Shown here piece after piece: positions 4,036 through 17,386 of a stretch of 19,497 bases of DNA; position 1 is the stretch's first letter, and each line of letters starts with the position of its first letter. The stretch lies in the UHGV virus genome UHGV-0127427; one strand, 5' to 3'. A program made the translations under genes and the position numbers. The stretch is from a virus. Below the pieces are notes generated by a model that had not been told where the DNA came from, made no database searches, and saw only the letters and a program-made list of their open reading frames with translations.

Positions 4036-4726
4036 ATGGAAGTTATCTACATAGTAGAACCAATCATTTCCACAAGCACTAACAAGTTGATAGCAGTGGA
4101 AGTGTTGAGCAGATTTTATTCCAACGAGGGGGGCTATTCTTTCTACTCAGAAAGTATTAGGTATGTTTACAAGCAAGATGAAGATTAACTTGCTAAAATC
4201 TCAACTTAACACAATAATCAAATATAAGTATTTTTTTGAATGCCATAATATATTATGCTCTATCAATGTAGATTATGATACCTGTTTATATATATATGGC
4301 AATAAACAAATTCAAGAACTACTAATAAACAATAAATTTATAGCGATTGAGATATCAGAAAACTATCCTGATTTAAGCGATGAGGATTACATCATATCCT
4401 TTCTACTGACTTTGACAGATAATGTTTGGCTTGATGATTTTGGAAGTGGTAACGCCACCATGAAAGCATTAATTAAAAATAAATATCATGCAATAAAACT
4501 TGATAAGTCATTTTTTCAAGAGCATATGATTAAGCCTCATTTTGATGTCATTATTAGCAATTTAAAAAAGTTATGTCCGAATATCATCGCTGAAGGCGTC
4601 GAAAACATTGATTGTCATAAGTTATCAAAAGGGATAGGGCTATGGGGCACTCAGGGATATTTTTTCCCATCAATTCCGCTGACGGAGATTGAGTCCATAG
4701 ATAGTAAGTGGCTATCAGATTTATGA
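4036..4726 (+). pseudogene. EAL-domain gene (degenerate EAL-only type) split by a frameshift: frame 1 4036-4188 (50 aa, EVL motif), frame 2 4163-4726 (187 aa)
   Basis: Frame 1 starts at ATG 4036 behind GAGGGTGGGAGC and encodes the EAL-type N-terminus (EPIISTSTNKLIAVEVLSRF). Frame 2 carries the remaining EAL signatures in canonical order: DDFGSGNATMKAL (DDFGTG), IKLDKSFF (KIDRSF), IAEGVE, QGYFFPSIP (QGYLFSRP). The two frames overlap around a G6 run at 4128-4133. Confidence 0.55.
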
Positions 4727-6081: not shown

Positions 6082-6098
6082 CGATATATTAGAGCAAT
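6082..6098 (-). promoter_or_regulatory. C1 operator-like site (Op2-type) overlapping a candidate ref promoter
   Basis: Minus-strand sense ATTGCTCTAATATAT (14/17 to ATTGCTCTAATAAATTT) directly followed by CGC and a perfect TATAAT, about 90 bp upstream of ref. Confidence 0.65.
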
Positions 6099-6232: not shown

Positions 6233-6542
6233 ATTTCATCATGGAAGTTGTTAACGCTTTGGACCTTGCTGAACTGATTGAGAGGGCTTTGTCAACGTGC
6301 CCCAAAAATTCGCCAAACTCAGACATCACTTTAGCAAAACCGCGCCGTGCTTCTTCCTCGGTGGCATTCATCACGAAATGTTCAGCACCACGCATACTTT
6401 TGACAGGGAACGCAACGGATATTGAATCAATATCAGGCATTCTATCGCTCAGCTTTACAGTGACAATGACGGCTGGCGACTGAATATTAGTGCTTACAGA
6501 CAGCACTACATATTTTCCGTCGATGTTGAAATCCTTTCTCAC
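6231..6542 (-). CDS. Cra-like hypothetical protein (cre-associated position); start uncertain (GTG 6542 or ATG 6440)
   Basis: ORF immediately downstream of cre on the same strand with protein-like composition (EEEARRGFAKVMSEFGEFLGHVDKAL); no strong RBS at either start. Confidence 0.4.
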   Translation of the reverse strand: MRKDFNIDGKYVVLSVSTNIQSPAVIVTVKLSDRMPDIDSISVAFPVKSMRGAEHFVMNATEEEARRGFAKVMSEFGEFLGHVDKALSISSARSKALTTSMMK

Positions 6543-6592: not shown

Positions 6593-7624
6593 CTAATCGC
6601 CATCTTCCAGAAGGCGCACCATTGCCCCTGTTTCACTATCCAGGTTACGGATATAGTTCATGACAATATTTACGTTGGTCCAGCCACCAGCTTGCATGAT
6701 CTCCGGTATTGAAACTCCGGCACGGGCCATATCTCGCGCGGCTCCGACACGGGCACTGTGTCCAGACCAGGCCAGGTACCTCTGGCCAGAGTCATCCTTA
6801 GCCCCGTAAATCAATCGGTGAGTTGCTTCAAAAATCCCTTCCAGGGCGCGAGTTGATAGCTGGCTGGTGGGTGATGGCGAGGCAACACCATTTTTTCTGA
6901 CCCGGCAAAACAAGTAGTTATTCGGATCATCAGCCACACCAGAGACAGAAATCCATCGTTCGACCAGTTTAGTTACCCCCAGGCTAAGTGCCTTCTCTAC
7001 ACCCGCGGTACTAACCAGAGTTTTCGTTCTGCCAATATGGATTAGCATTCTCCCACCGTCTGTACGTGAGATATCTTTAACCCTGATCCTGGCAATTTCG
7101 GCTATACGTAACAGGGTGTTATAAGCGATCCCCAGAAATGCCAGATTACGTATATCCTGGCAGCGATCGCTATTTTCCATGAGTGAACGAACCTGGTCGA
7201 AATCAGTGCGTTCGAACGCCAATGCCTGTTTTGCACGTTCACCGGCATCAACGTTTTCTTTTCGAATCCGCCGCATGACCAGTGAAACAGCATTGCTGTC
7301 ACTTGGTCGTGGCAGCCCGGACCGACGATGAAGCATGTTTAGCTGGCCCAAATGTTGCTGGATAGTTTTTACTGCCAGACCGCGCGCCTGAAGATATAGA
7401 AGATAATCGCGAACATCTTCAGGTTCTGCGGGAAACCACTTCCGGTTATTCAACTTGCACCATGCCGCCCACGACCGGCAAACGGACAGAAGCATTTTCC
7501 AGGTATGCTCAGAAAACGCCTGGCGATCCCTGAACATGTCCATCAGGTTCTTGCGAACCTCATCACTCGTTGCATCGACCGGTAATGCAGGCAAATTTTG
7601 GTGTACGGTCAGTAAATTGGACAT
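6593..7624 (-). CDS. cre: Cre site-specific tyrosine recombinase, 343 aa
   Basis: 343-aa ORF starting MSNLLTVHQNLPALPVDATSDEVRKNLMDMFRDRQAFSEHTWKMLLSVCRSWAAWCKLNNRKWFPAEPEDVRDYLLYLQARGLAVKTIQQHLGQLNMLHRRSGLPRPSDSNAVSLVMRRIRKENVDAGERAKQALAFERTDFDQVRSLMENSDRCQDIRNLAFLGIAYNTLLRIAEIARIRVKDISRTDGGRMLIHIGRTKTLVSTAGVEKALSLGVTKLVERWISVSGVADDPNNYLFCRVRKNGVASPSPTSQLSTRALEGIFEATHRLIYGAKDDSGQRYLAWSGHSARVGAARDMARAGVSIPEIMQAGGWTNVNIVMNYIRNLDSETGAMVRLLEDGD, near-identical to P1 Cre as recalled; loxP lies 419 bp upstream. Confidence 0.97.
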   Translation of the reverse strand: MSNLLTVHQNLPALPVDATSDEVRKNLMDMFRDRQAFSEHTWKMLLSVCRSWAAWCKLNNRKWFPAEPEDVRDYLLYLQARGLAVKTIQQHLGQLNMLHRRSGLPRPSDSNAVSLVMRRIRKENVDAGERAKQALAFERTDFDQVRSLMENSDRCQDIRNLAFLGIAYNTLLRIAEIARIRVKDISRTDGGRMLIHIGRTKTLVSTAGVEKALSLGVTKLVERWISVSGVADDPNNYLFCRVRKNGVASPSPTSQLSTRALEGIFEATHRLIYGAKDDSGQRYLAWSGHSARVGAARDMARAGVSIPEIMQAGGWTNVNIVMNYIRNLDSETGAMVRLLEDGD

Positions 7625-8119: not shown

Positions 8120-8136
8120 AGAATTATTAGAGCAAT
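8120..8136 (-). promoter_or_regulatory. C1 operator (Op99-type) in immC
   Basis: Minus-strand sense ATTGCTCTAATAATTCT (15/17). Confidence 0.6.
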
Positions 8137-8196
8137 AAATTTTGAGAGAAAAATCCCACTCCACCAGCTAAAAACTGGATTGTTTTTCATAGTTGT

Positions 8197-8223
8197 TTGA
8201 CAATTGCTCTAATAAATTATAGT
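8197..8223 (+). promoter_or_regulatory. Candidate immC promoter with embedded C1 operator (TTGACA - operator - TATAGT)
   Basis: TTGACA 8197-8202, operator ATTGCTCTAATAAATTA 8203-8219 (16/17), TATAGT 8218-8223; upstream of coi-c1 on the same strand. Confidence 0.65.
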
Positions 8224-8457
8224 TTTGCCGCCGTTACGTAATACGACTTTGGATTCACTATTTAATGTGTCTTCAGCGTTGTAGAGCGGCTCAGAAGGAA
8301 ATGAGCAAACAGGGAAACCTTATACAATGGCATTACAGCTATGCATTGCTCATCTTACACACAGCGCAATGTTGTTAGATTACCCCAGCATGGATCATGG
8401 GTGAAACAGTAGGTCAGAGCTTCAGGCTCTGTGTTGTCAATACAGTGAGGCATAATT

Positions 8458-8667
8458 ATGGCTTTCATTCAACCAACCATCGACGACGTTAGACATTGCT
8501 CTAACGCTTTATCTGTAGACCCTGCCGAAACCGACGCTGCCAGCACCATTGCTGAACACTACTCAAAGATATCCAATCAGGACTACCGCATCACCCAAGA
8601 CGACCTGGATGACCTCACTGACACAATCGAATATCTCATGGCAACTAACCAGTTAGCCTCACAATAA
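8458..8667 (+). CDS. coi: Coi, C1 inactivator, 69 aa
   Basis: 69-aa acidic ORF directly upstream of c1 on the same strand (MAFIQPTIDDVRHCSNALSVD...); size and position match P1 Coi; GTGAGG 7 nt upstream of the ATG. Confidence 0.85.
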   Translation: MAFIQPTIDDVRHCSNALSVDPAETDAASTIAEHYSKISNQDYRITQDDLDDLTDTIEYLMATNQLASQ

Positions 8668-8777
8668 ATGCACTAATAAATCTATTATTTTTGTTTGATC
8701 CCTCTATAATATAGGTCAGTAATGACCGGTTTTCTCAACCGGGCGTTATTGACCATGTCAATTCTGGAGGAGGATCA

Positions 8778-9629
8778 ATGATAAATTATGTCTACGGCGA
8801 ACAACTGTACCAGGAGTTCGTCAGCTTCAGGGATCTCTTTCTAAAAAAAGCTGTTGCACGCGCCCAACACGTTGATGCCGCCAGCGACGGTCGTCCTGTT
8901 CGCCCGGTTGTCGTTCTGCCGTTCAAAGAAACGGACAGCATTCAGGCTGAAATTGATAAATGGACTTTAATGGCGCGGGAACTGGAACAGTACCCAGACC
9001 TCAATATCCCAAAGACTATTTTATATCCAGTGCCTAACATCCTTCGCGGTGTACGTAAGGTTACAACTTATCAGACAGAAGCTGTGAACAGCGTCAACAT
9101 GACCGCTGGCCGCATTATTCATCTGATTGATAAGGATATTCGCATCCAAAAAAGCGCGGGGTTCAATGAGCACAGTGCGAAATACATAGAGAACCTGGAA
9201 GCAACAAAAGAGCTAATGAAGCAGTACCCGGAGGATGAAAAATTCCGTATGCGCGTACACGGCTTTAGCGAAACAATGCTGCGCGTCCACTACATTTCCA
9301 GTAGCCCTAACTACAATGATGGTAAATCAGTTAGTTACCATGTGCCACTGTGTGGCGTGTTTATCTGCGATGAAACCCTCCGTGATGGAATCATCATCAA
9401 CGGTGAATTCGAGAAAGCAAAATTTAGCCTTTATGACTCCATAGAACCGATCATCTGCGACCGCTGGCCGCAGGCAAAAATATATCGCCTGGCAGATATT
9501 GAAAATGTAAAAAAACAAATTGCCATCACTCGCGAAGAGAAAAAGGTCAAATCAGCCGCATCAGTTACGCGCAGTCGTAAAACTAAGAAGGGGCAGCCAG
9601 TAAACGACAACCCCGAAAGCGCGCAATAA
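8778..9629 (+). CDS. c1: C1 repressor of lysis, 283 aa
   Basis: 283-aa ORF starting MINYVYGEQLYQEFVSFRDLF behind GGAGGAGG; matches P1 C1 in length and N-terminus as recalled; multiple cognate operators in the window. Confidence 0.95.
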   Translation: MINYVYGEQLYQEFVSFRDLFLKKAVARAQHVDAASDGRPVRPVVVLPFKETDSIQAEIDKWTLMARELEQYPDLNIPKTILYPVPNILRGVRKVTTYQTEAVNSVNMTAGRIIHLIDKDIRIQKSAGFNEHSAKYIENLEATKELMKQYPEDEKFRMRVHGFSETMLRVHYISSSPNYNDGKSVSYHVPLCGVFICDETLRDGIIINGEFEKAKFSLYDSIEPIICDRWPQAKIYRLADIENVKKQIAITREEKKVKSAASVTRSRKTKKGQPVNDNPESAQ

Positions 9630-9632
9630 ATT

Positions 9633-9654
9633 ATGCCCGGCATCAACCGGGCAT
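9633..9654. terminator. hairpin between convergent c1 and the antirepressor-like gene (possible bidirectional terminator)
   Basis: ATGCCCGG-CATCAA-CCGGGCAT, 8-bp stem, 4 nt after the c1 stop; flanks are only moderately T-rich. Confidence 0.45.
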
Positions 9655-9661
9655 TCTTCCA

Positions 9662-10429
9662 TTATTCAGCCGCCACCGGTTTTAACAAGCCAGCATCGAG
9701 CAGTTTACGCGTCAACCACTGTTGTCCTTTCCCCGTTAATTGGGGCGTCAGCCGTATCTGGTAGCCATCTTCATCATCCAGCACCACTTCTTTCACTGTG
9801 AAATATCCGGCGTTTATGTACTGCTGGAACGGCACATTTTTACGCCCGCCGGACGCTATCAGAATGCCGTTCTCCCGTAACCAGGCAAACAGCGCGTTTT
9901 GCTTCAGCCCAACAACCTTTGCAAAATTACCAATCAGGATCCCCTTAGCCACTGATACACGGTCGGCAAAATCGACCTTGGGGGCTGCGGCCACCAGTTG
10001 TTGATTTAGCTGGTGGGCCTTCTGTTCCAGTAGCTGCTTTTGTTCAGCCAGCTCGGCAGCCAGGCGCAAGGCTTCAGGTAGTGTTTGGGGGATTGCGACC
10101 GGTTGCTGTTCTTTTTGCCGGAAGTAGCTGTCTTCCAGTTTTTCAAAGAATGCCCATGCTTCATCTGTGTTTACGATCTTAGACATGCGTGCCGCTCCGC
10201 GTTCGGCCCAAAGAATTACCTGGCTTGTATATTTGCTAACCAGGTGACTAGTAGTCACCAGCCTTTTAAATTCCTTTAATTTTGAACCAGTTAAGAGATA
10301 GTAATGCTTACCTTCTTCAAAGCGATCGGAGTTGCGAGACAAATTTTTACGAATATTAGCTTCATCGGTTCCATAAGCGCAGATAAACATCGCGCTTATC
10401 GACATCCAGATGCGGGTATTCCTTTTCAA
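9662..10429 (-). CDS. phage antirepressor-like protein (ORF6N-type N-terminal region plus KilA-C/ANT-type C-terminal region); start uncertain (TTG 10429 or ATG 10405)
   Basis: N-terminal half AYGTDEANIRKNLSRNSDRFEEGKHYYLLTGSKLKEF...ILWAERGAARMSK and C-terminal half DRVSVAKGILIGNFAKVVGLKQNALFAWLRENGILIASGGRKNVPFQQYINAGYF are typical of phage antirepressors; sits where P1 has pacB/pacA/lpa. Confidence 0.65.
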   Translation of the reverse strand: MKRNTRIWMSISAMFICAYGTDEANIRKNLSRNSDRFEEGKHYYLLTGSKLKEFKRLVTTSHLVSKYTSQVILWAERGAARMSKIVNTDEAWAFFEKLEDSYFRQKEQQPVAIPQTLPEALRLAAELAEQKQLLEQKAHQLNQQLVAAAPKVDFADRVSVAKGILIGNFAKVVGLKQNALFAWLRENGILIASGGRKNVPFQQYINAGYFTVKEVVLDDEDGYQIRLTPQLTGKGQQWLTRKLLDAGLLKPVAAE

Positions 10430-10556
10430 GAATTGCTGCGAGTTCTTTCGCTGATAGAAGAGATTTAGTGCGGATCATGTAATCCGCAATCTCGTACGAT
10501 GTTATTCGTGAGTGATTTATTTCCATGAAGTGGCGTCCCTGCCAGTTAAGTAACAT
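10362..10556 (-). CDS. hypothetical 64-aa protein overlapping the 5' end of the antirepressor-like gene in another frame
   Basis: ATG 10556 preceded by AGGTGA at 4-nt spacing; ends within the first codons of the antirepressor ORF; could be a real leader gene or the product of a frameshift. Confidence 0.35.
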   Translation of the reverse strand: MLLNWQGRHFMEINHSRITSYEIADYMIRTKSLLSAKELAAILEKEYPHLDVDKRDVYLRLWNR

Positions 10557-10626
10557 CCTGTCACCTACTGATTAGCCCATGTCAACTAATCAACGTCGAA
10601 TATAATACCCTCGATTAAAGAAATAG

Positions 10627-10643
10627 CAATACATTAGAGCAAT
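10627..10643 (-). promoter_or_regulatory. C1 operator-like site upstream of the 64-aa/antirepressor unit
   Basis: Minus-strand sense ATTGCTCTAATGTATTG (14/17) beginning 1 nt after the pdcB-like stop; TTGCTA-16 bp-TATTAT promoter-like hexamers overlap it. Confidence 0.55.
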
Positions 10644-10644
10644 T

Positions 10645-11691
10645 TTATCTAACGCTCGACGAATGACTTGTGATAGCGCCGACTCCAAGCGCGTAATCAA
10701 AGAACAATCGTTGATGCATCGCCAGCCTACCGTGCGTCTTCTCCCAATTATCGCGGTCACGCTCAATATCACGCTGGCATGACTGGCACAGAGGAATAGC
10801 ATAAATGTCATGCGCGCATAATCGACTATAACGAACGATATAAGGCGTAATGTGAGCGCCAGCTCCCGCCGCTCCACACCCACAGCATGGACGGGAAGCA
10901 ACAAAGTCCATGTACTCAGGTAATTTTAGCGATTGCAGTTTTGGTATTTTGAAATGCGCCATACCTGGGTCGGAGTCAACATCCACAGGGCATACTTTTG
11001 CACGCATCGGCGCGGCGCGTTCTTCCATCATCTGAACATATGCTGTAGCGCGATCGTCATACGGGCGAATATCCGCCTCTTTCAGTGGTCCGCTATCCTG
11101 CGGAGTAGCCTTCATCTTATTTATTATTGATATGCGGCAGACTTCTTCCGGCATCAGGTGCATCATGTTGCGCATGAAAGCCCACCAGCACAGCTCCTGA
11201 ATACTTAAATCATGGCTATTTGAAAGGCCCATTTCCTGACGGGCGACATCCAGTATCCAGTTAACGCGATTATTGTGCAGCGTTTCTTTCAGCTCATTAA
11301 AACCACGCATCCGGTAATGGTTATCGTGATGCCAGCACAACAACACCGCGCTATTGTCTCGTTCAGCGTGGACAATATGGTTGTCACACCAACTACGATC
11401 TGCGGCCTGGCATTGACCCTCTTTCCTACGCAACCACGCCACCAGCGCGTCAATTCCACCAATACGGCGAAACAGTTCATCGCTGTTAAAAAACGGCTGC
11501 AACGCCTCATTTGTTGCCATGGTTTGCTCGGTAACAACGAGGCCGTCTTCCATGTGCTCGATTAACTCACGCGGCACCGGCTCCATAATAAATTTACGGC
11601 CAGCCTCCACCAGCTTTCTGACCTCCTGATCCACTTTGAACGTGGCGAGGCCAAGCTCTTTCTGTACAAAGGGAGTAATTACGGCTTTCAC
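10645..11691 (-). CDS. pdcB: PdcB-like protein (post-doc gene B position), 348 aa, GTG start, Cys-rich C-terminal region
   Basis: GTG 11691 preceded by AAGGTG at 4 nt; C-terminal CCGCG...C..C..C..C cluster suggests metal binding; assignment by position downstream of doc. Confidence 0.5.
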
Positions 11692-11902: not shown

Positions 11903-12283
11903 CTACTCCGCAGAACCATACAATCTACGTAACGTGGCGGCGACAGAAGATACAGATATCTCGCCAGTCGCAGCGCCTACAGTAAGGTCTGCCAGTTCAG
12001 GTGAATCAAATACCTGCACCCCGTTACGGCGTAGAAATAGCAGCGCACTGTTTAGCGCGGTACGCTTATTGGCATCATTGAATATATGCCCTCTCGCTGT
12101 AGCCACCAGGTAGGTGGCGGAGACTTCGAAAAGGTCGGTGATCTCTTCGTAGGCAACTCTGGCCTGAACTCTCCCGATAATGGCCTCTGCCCTACCCGGA
12201 TCTGACATTCCCGGCAGGCCGCCGTAGCGGTTTATATTCGCATCATGAAGCGCAATAAGTTCTTCCGGTGATATATGCCTCAT
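11903..12283 (-). CDS. doc: Doc toxin (Fic-fold kinase) of the phd-doc addiction module, 126 aa
   Basis: 126-aa [50 protein letters not shown]...; start overlaps the phd stop by 1 nt (TAATG), as in P1. Confidence 0.95.
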
Positions 12284-12504
12284 TATCGGTTAACCAGTTC
12301 CTTGTTGGTGGAGTCCAGGGTGTCAAACAGGGATGCAAATTCAGCATCCAGCGCCGCTTTTTTGTAGGCTTCGAAAGTAGCCTTGCTGACAATTACTGCT
12401 GGCTCACGGCCTCTGCGGGTGATTTCAACCTCTTCCCCGGCTTCAACATTGTTGAGCACTTCAGAAAGGTTGCCGCGCGCGGTACGGAAGTTAATGGATT
12501 GCAT
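12283..12504 (-). CDS. phd: Phd antitoxin, 73 aa
   Basis: [73 protein letters not shown] from ATG 12504 (two codons inside the track's start); matches P1 Phd. Confidence 0.95.
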
Positions 12505-12684
12505 AAACACCTCGTGTACTCGTTATGTGTACACAATTATAAACTTCACAGGCATAAAGCACCAGCACTTTGCAGCTTAAATCACCGGACAATCATCAAA
12601 TTCCCCACTTCGGGCATCATTAATGACATGAGTGATCACACCAAACACAGCATTACTCCCCGTGCATCCATCGTCATCCACTGG

Positions 12685-17369: not shown

Positions 17370-17386
17370 TTATTTATTAGAGCAAT
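17370..17386 (-). promoter_or_regulatory. C1 operator-like site upstream of the small-peptide/ASCH unit
   Basis: Minus-strand sense ATTGCTCTAATAAATAA (15/17), overlapping the stop of the HAD-like gene. Confidence 0.6.

Follow-up and report, generated by a model that had tools for sequence, protein, structure and literature searches.

A probable deletion scar between c1 and pdcB of a P1-derived plasmid joins remnants of an antirepressor gene and of lpa

The virus genome record UHGV-0127427 was analysed here over its whole length of 19,497 nucleotides (19.5 kb only), referred to as the window, which represents a segment of a P1-like replicon in an orientation reversed relative to the P1 map. 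The subject is the interval between c1, the gene of the P1-type primary repressor, and pdcB, in which an open reading frame (ORF) for an antirepressor-like protein, designated ant', is overlapped by a short ORF, designated lpa', and both are preceded by an operator-like site for the C1 repressor.

Genes and signals between c1 and pdcB

The distance from c1 to pdcB is 1015 bp in the window, as compared with ~3.3 kb in P1 and ~5.0 kb in the Escherichia phages JL22 and RCS47. As already noted in a preliminary description of this DNA, the space of about 1 kb holds an antirepressor-like ORF of 255 residues and an overlapping ORF of 64 residues (with an overlap of 68 nt), headed by a C1 operator-like site overlapping promoter hexamers, where P1 has lpa, pacA and pacB within an interval of ~3 kb. 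These observations were all reproduced, and the same is true for the absence of the three P1 genes, since tblastn with P1 PacA and PacB gave no match in the window and lpa was found to be truncated after codon 61. The conclusion of a different immunity circuit was not supported, because the operator is that known in P1 as Olpa, and the two ORFs correspond to a truncated lpa and a truncated ant. By megablast, window positions 10374-10800 match P1, P7 and SJ46 in their pdcB-Olpa-Plpa-lpa 5' region with an identity of 98.4–99.5%, and positions 9500-10367 match the c1-ant region of JL22 and RCS47 with 90–92%. The coordinates of all features are summarized in Table 1.

Table 1. Features of the c1-pdcB locus in the window and of the related fusion gene, with the evidence for each
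Feature	Position	Strand	Evidence
cre, intact	6593-7624	-	ORF
coi, intact	8458-8667	+	ORF
c1, P1-type primary repressor, 283 residues, intact	8778-9629	+	ORF; every matching record annotates phage repressor protein C1; Pfam PF27008 on the identical gene in contigs
Terminator-like hairpin, 9-bp stem, separating convergent c1 and ant'	9633-9654		Terminator scan; same sequence after c1 in JL22
ant', 255-residue ORF, 3' remnant of RCS47/JL22-type antirepressor gene	9662-10429	-	Pfam, PHROG, alignment, frame analysis
lpa', 64-residue ORF overlapping ant'	10362-10556	-	Pfam, tblastn, translation
Deletion junction, shared TA; left ant, right lpa	10374-10375		BLAST break points, junction sequences
Plpa, sigma-70 lpa promoter (-10 at 10602-10607, -35 at 10624-10629)	10602-10629	-	Promoter scan; P1 AF234172 annotation transferred via a 98–100% identical alignment
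Olpa (former Op94), monovalent C1 operator	10627-10643	-	Identity and position of the 17-mer, P1 protein_bind feature, consensus scan
pdcB, DUF968, 348 residues, intact	10645-11691	-	Pfam DUF968, E 1.2e-48; P1 annotation
pdcA	beyond pdcB, before doc		ORF list
doc, intact	11903-12283		ORF
phd, intact	12283-12510		ORF
humD-like gene	listed after phd		ORF list
Lpa::Ant fusion gene of pMTY9803	L003 6931-8076 = NZ_CP135674.1 53317-54462	-
Lpa::Ant fusion gene, pMRE162 copy	L007 8148-9293	+

The 17-mer of the operator, ATTGCTCTAATGTATTG, has three mismatches to the consensus of the 17-bp asymmetric C1 operator, ATTGCTCTAATAAATTT, and a scan with this consensus revealed six C1-operator-like sites in the window, as against 0.10 expected from shuffled sequences. 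In a four-way alignment the 17-mer is base-identical, and in the same position, in the window, P1, RCS47 and plasmid pMTY9803 (see below); the P1 record AF234172 annotates the identical site as Olpa/Op94, a protein_bind feature for phage repressor C1, and it lies 2 bp from the pdcB stop codon in both the window and P1. It overlaps the -35 hexamer of a sigma-70-like promoter, TTGCTA-16-TATTAT, coinciding with the annotated Plpa (former P94) of P1. The four sequences agree in the two hexamers, in the ribosome-binding site and in the start codon of lpa (gene 10 of P1), and window positions 10540-10660 are identical or nearly so to AF234172. Since operator, hexamers, ribosome-binding site and lpa start all match the annotated Plpa/Olpa of P1, the operator and the promoter can be assigned to lpa as P1-native elements, and not to an antirepressor module. 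Binding of C1 to Olpa and repression there are predicted, as assumed from the identity with the P1 site. The five further C1-operator-like sites are located at 6082-6098 (-), 8120-8136 (-), 8203-8219 (+), 8667-8683 (+) and 17370-17386 (-). Those within 8120-8683 correspond to Oc1e, Oc1d and Oc1a of P1 around coi and c1, the site at 6082 is found upstream of ref, and the one at 17370 adjoins a pap-like gene.

The 64-residue ORF consists of Lpa codons 1–61 (10374-10556), followed by the residues WNR and a stop codon that are read from ant sequence in the wrong frame. Residues 1–61 of P1 Lpa matched the window with 100% identity in tblastn, and in Pfam the ORF covers only positions 1–47 of the 131 positions of the BPP1_LPA profile (PF25716); it does not reach the size of a full-length Lpa, i.e. 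~150 residues covering the whole profile. Judging from these matches, the ORF represents a truncated lpa and not a new gene.

For the 255-residue protein, the profile search suggested in the preliminary description revealed a complete ANT/KilAC domain (PF03374, E 1.8e-31, residues 143–244) and a partial ORF6N domain (PF10543, E 5.6e-12), the latter covering profile positions 20–86 of 86, as compared with positions 4–86 in both the full-length RCS47 Ant and the pMTY9803 fusion protein. The match to PHROG 63 ('anti-repressor Ant') extends over profile positions 142–367 of 431 and starts at residue 19. The Ant-derived DNA is 9662-10375, which corresponds to about residues 146–371 of the 371-residue protein; codons 1–19 of the ORF (10376-10429) derive from lpa, read in another frame, and residues 20–255 are Ant-derived. 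In comparison with P1 Ant1, the N-terminal region of ~95 residues and the Met equivalent to the start of Ant2 are missing. No Shine-Dalgarno sequence is suitably spaced from any of the candidate starts (TTG 10429, ATG 10405, ATG 10390).

Origin of the interval and its closest relatives

The ancestral layout is seen in RCS47 and JL22, where the order is c1, ant (371 and 370 residues, respectively, convergent with c1), a region of ~0.6 kb, pacB, pacA (containing pac), lpa, Plpa/Olpa and pdcB. In the 0.6-kb region of both phages, Rfam detected the C4 antisense RNA and the isrK RNA at the gathering threshold, and a C1-operator-like site with two mismatches is positioned upstream of isrK/C4. The whole block may be considered as a complete second immI-like module, composed of operator, isrK, C4, an icd-like ORF and ant. 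The coordinates noted for it are L001 7551-7852 (RCS47), L002 2988-3289 (JL22) and L022 2573-2874. The same grammar is found in P1 immI (X17512), with an operator at 50-66, c4 at 247-332, icd, and ant1 at 598-1641, and the two share the C4 RNA family. The RCS47-type Ant is 54% identical to P1 Ant1; the N-terminal ~95 residues and the KilAC C-terminus are common to both proteins, whereas the central part (ORF6N) differs. The insertion of ant between pacB and c1 has already been described for RCS47 and pTZ20_1P (PMC6906374). In an evenly spaced sample (60 of 741 matching plasmids), about half of the P1-like plasmids carried ant beside c1. The plasmid pTetA_020022, heavily rearranged by insertion sequence (IS) elements, has the accessory module and, at another place, a canonical icd-ant locus. 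An antirepressor operon placed under a C1 operator is already present in P1 immI and in the accessory module of JL22 and RCS47.

The ant' of the window equals the 3' part (~60% of the gene) of the ant found in the accessory module of RCS47, JL22 and pTZ20_1P, with a DNA identity of 90–93%, and shares with the RCS47 and JL22 modules the position and orientation beside c1 as well as the hairpin between c1 and ant. With P1 immI (Op51 - c4 - icd - ant1/ant2) it shares the C-terminal KilAC part, 76% identical over 179 aligned residues. Neither C4, isrK nor an icd leader was found in the window interval, whereas Rfam finds C4 and isrK in RCS47, JL22 and pTetA; as compared with P1 immI, the interval lacks c4, icd, the Ant1 N-terminus and the Ant2-type start. 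Projected on JL22 (L002), the window sequence is kept to position 2316, within ant, and resumes at position 6327, within lpa, the dinucleotide TA being shared by both sides. Approximately 4.0 kb are missing, comprising the first ~145 codons of ant, the icd-like ORF, C4, isrK, the module's own operator, pacB, pacA including the pac cleavage site, LPpac and codons 62–151 of lpa, so that of the P1 lpa region only Plpa/Olpa and lpa codons 1–61 remain next to pdcB.

The interval is therefore best read as a deletion scar in a P1-derived plasmid, to which we assign a probability of about 0.88 on the basis of these comparisons. An ancestor with the RCS47/JL22 layout, evident from the comparison, would have been broken and rejoined at two TA dinucleotides, at about codon 146 of ant and at codon 61/62 of lpa, with the removal of ~4.0 kb. 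The opposite direction, with the short arrangement being ancestral and the lpa-pacAB-C4 block inserted into it, is incompatible with the break points, because both are situated inside reading frames. The juxtaposition of the operator and ant' would then be an accident of the deletion rather than a different immunity circuit. Since the module's own operator is gone, ant' could be transcribed from Plpa alone; upon loss of C1, a transcript from the intact Plpa/Olpa, normally kept off by C1, would read lpa' and then ant'.

The nearest records are plasmid pMTY9803_untypable1 (NZ_CP135674.1), with flanks 100% identical to those of the window, and three pMRE162 plasmids (NZ_CP119401/03/05), with 99.9%. 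These are degraded P1-derived plasmids of 61–77 kb, near-identical to the window over c1-ant'-lpa'-pdcB and far beyond. They differ from it by holding 251 bp more, through which codon 66 of lpa leads in frame into codon 56 of ant. The resulting fusion protein of pMTY9803 has 381 residues and the domains BPP1_LPA, ORF6N and ANT; its gene is driven by Plpa/Olpa and bears the RefSeq name 'phage antirepressor Ant'. The pMRE162 fusion gene differs from it by a single base, which changes Ser175 to a stop codon. The nearest complete relative of the window, pMRE162 (76.9 kb), possesses P1-type repA, parA/parB, c1, cre and phd/doc, and carries many IS elements and, as cargo, genes for an autotransporter, cellulose synthase and C4-dicarboxylate metabolism; no head, tail, lysis or terminase gene was found in the whole plasmid.

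Most probably, the scar arose in two steps, an order favoured by the nesting of the deletions and the near-identity of the sequences. A first deletion would have created the in-frame Lpa(1–66)::Ant(56–371) fusion, still present in pMTY9803, and a second one, of 251 bp, would have taken out the fusion joint and shifted the frame, 251 not being a multiple of three. The fusion gene would accordingly have been inactivated twice and independently in sister lineages, because pMRE162 has the nonsense mutation and the lineage of the window a frameshifting deletion.

Three points weigh against this interpretation or parts of it. The window covers only 19.5 kb, and for the remainder of the replicon the lack of pacA and pacB is deduced from its nearest complete relative. 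The ant' frame is open over 255 codons, has ATG codons at 10405 and 10390, and encodes a complete KilAC domain. Finally, the two-step order depends on nesting and near-identity, and an identical sequence would result if 4.0 kb had been lost at once from an intact ancestor that is not among the sampled ones. The last point corresponds to the alternative of a single-step origin, in which one deletion of ~4.0 kb in an RCS47/JL22-like ancestor happened independently of the fusion in pMTY9803 and pMRE162, with the same end state and consequences. It agrees with the fact that both break points of the window are at TA sites like those of other one-step alleles (see below), the right one (JL22 6327) having been used independently in two other alleles on different backbones, and that the pMTY9803 junction is of a different type, without microhomology. 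The flanks of the window are, however, 99.9–100% identical to those of pMTY9803 and pMRE162, as against 93–97% for the intact phages examined, and its deletion wholly encloses theirs, so that a single step is considered rather unlikely.

A second alternative, in line with the preliminary description, is a functional, rewired module in which a truncated antirepressor is made from the C1-controlled Plpa, for example by translational coupling to lpa', giving a feedback loop. Plpa and Olpa are indeed intact, the ant' frame with its internal ATG codons overlaps lpa', and the complete KilAC domain shares ~76% identity with the C-terminal portion of P1 Ant1; on the other hand, the ant' frame is shifted with respect to lpa', its candidate starts have no Shine-Dalgarno sequence, and the deletion has taken the N-terminus of Ant1, the start of Ant2 type and the initial strands of ORF6N. 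The sister plasmid pMTY9803 has an intact in-frame Lpa::Ant fusion using the ribosome-binding site of lpa, but this gene was knocked out independently by the nonsense mutation in pMRE162. In other deletion alleles, too, ant is annotated as a remnant of 110 residues (the L005, L018 and L022 classes) or as a partial pseudogene or small remnant ORF (L028, L029), or has no annotation at all (L004, L019). The arrangement is 100% conserved across many contigs; these are, however, essentially identical everywhere, so that the conservation reflects recency and is not evidence of selection. Moreover, the nearest complete relative is devoid of the lytic machinery that an antirepressor could turn on. A functional module of this kind thus seems highly unlikely. 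In the reading as a deletion scar, ant' is most likely a pseudogene, because it has no ribosome-binding site and has lost both native starts and part of the central domain. Translation at a low level with some residual activity is conceivable, and a residual function of ant' is judged to be of low probability.

The exact junction was absent from PLSDB, from 5,426 complete RefSeq Escherichia coli genomes (in a junction-spanning megablast, where the only matches were the alleles longer by 251 bp) and from a one-genome-per-species collection (in a search with a 32-mer over the junction). It could be located by means of the junction-specific 64-residue ORF, the product of which occurs in 45 blocks of public assemblies; reading 24 contigs placed the junction on at least 24 contigs, the same gene order was found at eight places from separate projects (ENA, JGI, Logan), and two contigs from human-gut metagenomes match the window with 100% identity over 19,136 bp. 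Samples with the junction include SRR413634, JGI 3300056507 and SRR23603513. An assembly artefact, i.e. a mis-joining of reads from the c1-ant and lpa-pdcB regions, to which the absence from the three collections might point, is refuted by these independent assemblies and has practically no probability left.

Contigs with the lpa'-ant' junction carry further deletions. In L014 (9390-9600), ant' at window position 10177 is joined through a messy junction to a gene for a PAS-domain chemoreceptor, with loss of c1 and coi, and in L013 (3100-3140) and L016 the region of window position 12616 is joined to pMRE162 position ~75730, with a 6-nt microhomology (TGCCCG in L013). The lineage of the window is still eroding.

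Recurrent deletions with TA at the junction

The c1 and pdcB genes have been brought close to each other in 59 of the 5,426 complete E. coli genomes, among which 1,136 have any match. Fifteen deletion alleles were mapped on JL22, that of the window included (at least 14 others occur in P1-like plasmids). Four of them contain an IS element at the joint (IS1 in two, an IS903-like element and a member of the IS3 family, respectively). The 11 IS-free alleles yielded 12 junctions, and in 10 of these the microhomology is TA or contains it (exactly TA seven times; TTA, TACC and GTAA once each). The observation concerns, besides the window, the alleles L004, L005, L017, L018, L019, L022, L023 and L029; exceptions to the rule are the pMTY9803 fusion, which has no microhomology, and pWL164-2, with TT and lpa retained. 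The statistics were calculated for the first ten junctions, nine of them with TA, the last two alleles (one TA, one TT) having been mapped afterwards. With break points placed at random within the same ranges, a microhomology containing TA is obtained in 1.3% of cases, and the chance of at least nine in ten is ~1e-16. Furthermore, GGTA/TACC is present at 11 of the first 15 parental break sites, as against 18% of the TA sites of the region (binomial p = 5e-6), and a sixteenth parental site, in pCRST035_1, is also GGTA.

Several sites were used again with different partners, JL22 6327 three times (in the window, the pHI1B-o111 class and pCRST035_1), and 6370 and 2636 twice each. In six of the ten TA junctions the right end is within 45 bp of lpa. 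Where TA-type junctions reach lpa, every right end is inside it. All left ends are between the c1 stop codon and pacB, and the IS-free deletion alleles examined have all kept pdcB as the right-hand neighbour. Outside the interval, two deletions in the plasmid lineage of the window (L013, L014) are ordinary microhomology events of 5–6 nt, and the TA rule may be specific to the c1-pdcB locus, as far as two outside deletions allow a comparison.

The crossover is always within TA, which fits a 2-nt staggered cut followed by religation, or a TA-centred overhang with trimming of the ends. Several candidate activities were considered. Cre acting at cryptic lox sites was rejected, the 15 break sites having 3–9 of 26 matches to the loxP arms as compared with a mean of 6.8 for the TA background. 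Cuts by the P1 pacase as a source of ends are not supported either, since pac cleavages are 2-nt staggered at G/C and A/C steps and not at TA, and none of the deletions ends at pac. Gyrase trapped by quinolones cleaves ahead of a G and leaves a stagger of 4 nt (PMC6379681). This would suit G|GTAC|C, but all recombinants are hybrids over these four nucleotides, crossing over in the TA, which does not fit a simple model of subunit exchange; gyrase or topoisomerase IV would be conceivable only with processing of the ends. Boundaries like those of group I/II introns and the YTAR targets of IS5-type elements were inconsistent with the 15 sites, as judged by eye. Within lpa there is a hairpin, TA-AGCGC-N11-GCGCT-TA (window 10374-10399; JL22 L002 6326-6351; z = -2.2), both flanking TAs of which served as deletion end points, that at the left foot three times and that at the right foot once. 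No general hairpin structure was found at the remaining break sites.

Because independent deletions share the TA (GGTA/TACC) rule and some of their end points, a specific cutting and joining activity is suggested. That one TA-cutting activity with a preference for GGTA/TACC repeatedly removes the lpa-pacA-pacB block together with the ant leader, re-using sites in lpa, is put forward tentatively, as a proposal that is doubtful at present. The TA rule might be the sole part of this locus that is new. If the proposal is true, the conversion of phage to plasmid would follow a defined enzymatic route rather than random decay, with the junction in the window as one of its products, and, if confirmed, it would be a new mechanism shaping clinically relevant elements that carry resistance.

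State of the element

As expected for a P1-derived plasmid, the window has intact copies of cre, coi, c1, phd and doc; repA and parAB are outside it and are annotated in pMRE162. The search for pacA and pacB beyond the window, also suggested in the preliminary description, was negative: tblastn with P1 PacA and PacB found no match in the pMTY9803 locus (L003), in the metagenome contigs L009 and L010, or in the whole of pMRE162, the nearest complete relative. The comparison thus supports a packaging-defective P1-derived plasmid, the absence of pacAB outside the window being extrapolated from pMRE162. As follows from known P1 biology, without Lpa the late promoters could not be activated, without PacA, PacB and the pac site the DNA could not be packaged, and the element would persist solely as a plasmid. 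Of the earlier suggestions regarding packaging, a defective or plasmid-only state agrees with pMRE162, which has neither pacase nor structural genes, whereas packaging in a different way found no support.

Two other observations were made in the window. A region similar to the C-terminal part of a darB-like DNA methyltransferase (50-2322, +) is split into two overlapping ORFs, covering positions 101–639 and 639–857 of PHROG 21007; the split suggests a frameshift and further decay of phage genes. A gene for an EAL-domain protein of the cyclic-di-GMP phosphodiesterase type (4163-4726, +), located between ref and the darB-like region, is also present in pMRE162 and is a probable cargo gene in the P1 backbone.

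The change of P1-like phage-plasmids into plasmids by gene loss has been published (Pfeifer & Rocha 2024, PMC10879196), and the P1-derived plasmids treated in that paper are the same kind of element formed by the same process, with loss of phage functions and persistence as plasmids; in the passages searched, neither a hot spot of deletion between c1 and pdcB nor the fusion of Lpa with Ant nor a TA rule for the junctions is described. The element of the window is thus of a known kind, and the scar represents an ordinary stage in the decay of a phage to a plasmid. This exact allele is not yet present in curated plasmid collections. The 'phage antirepressor', the small ORF and the 381-residue 'Ant' of pMTY9803 would be products of deletion, and should not be annotated as an immunity system. 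The element would be classed as a P1-derived plasmid unable to form particles, and the locus would serve as a base-resolved example of the transition from phage-plasmid to plasmid, in which the late activator, the pacase and pac have been lost through one deletion and the flanking repressor and addiction module have remained intact.

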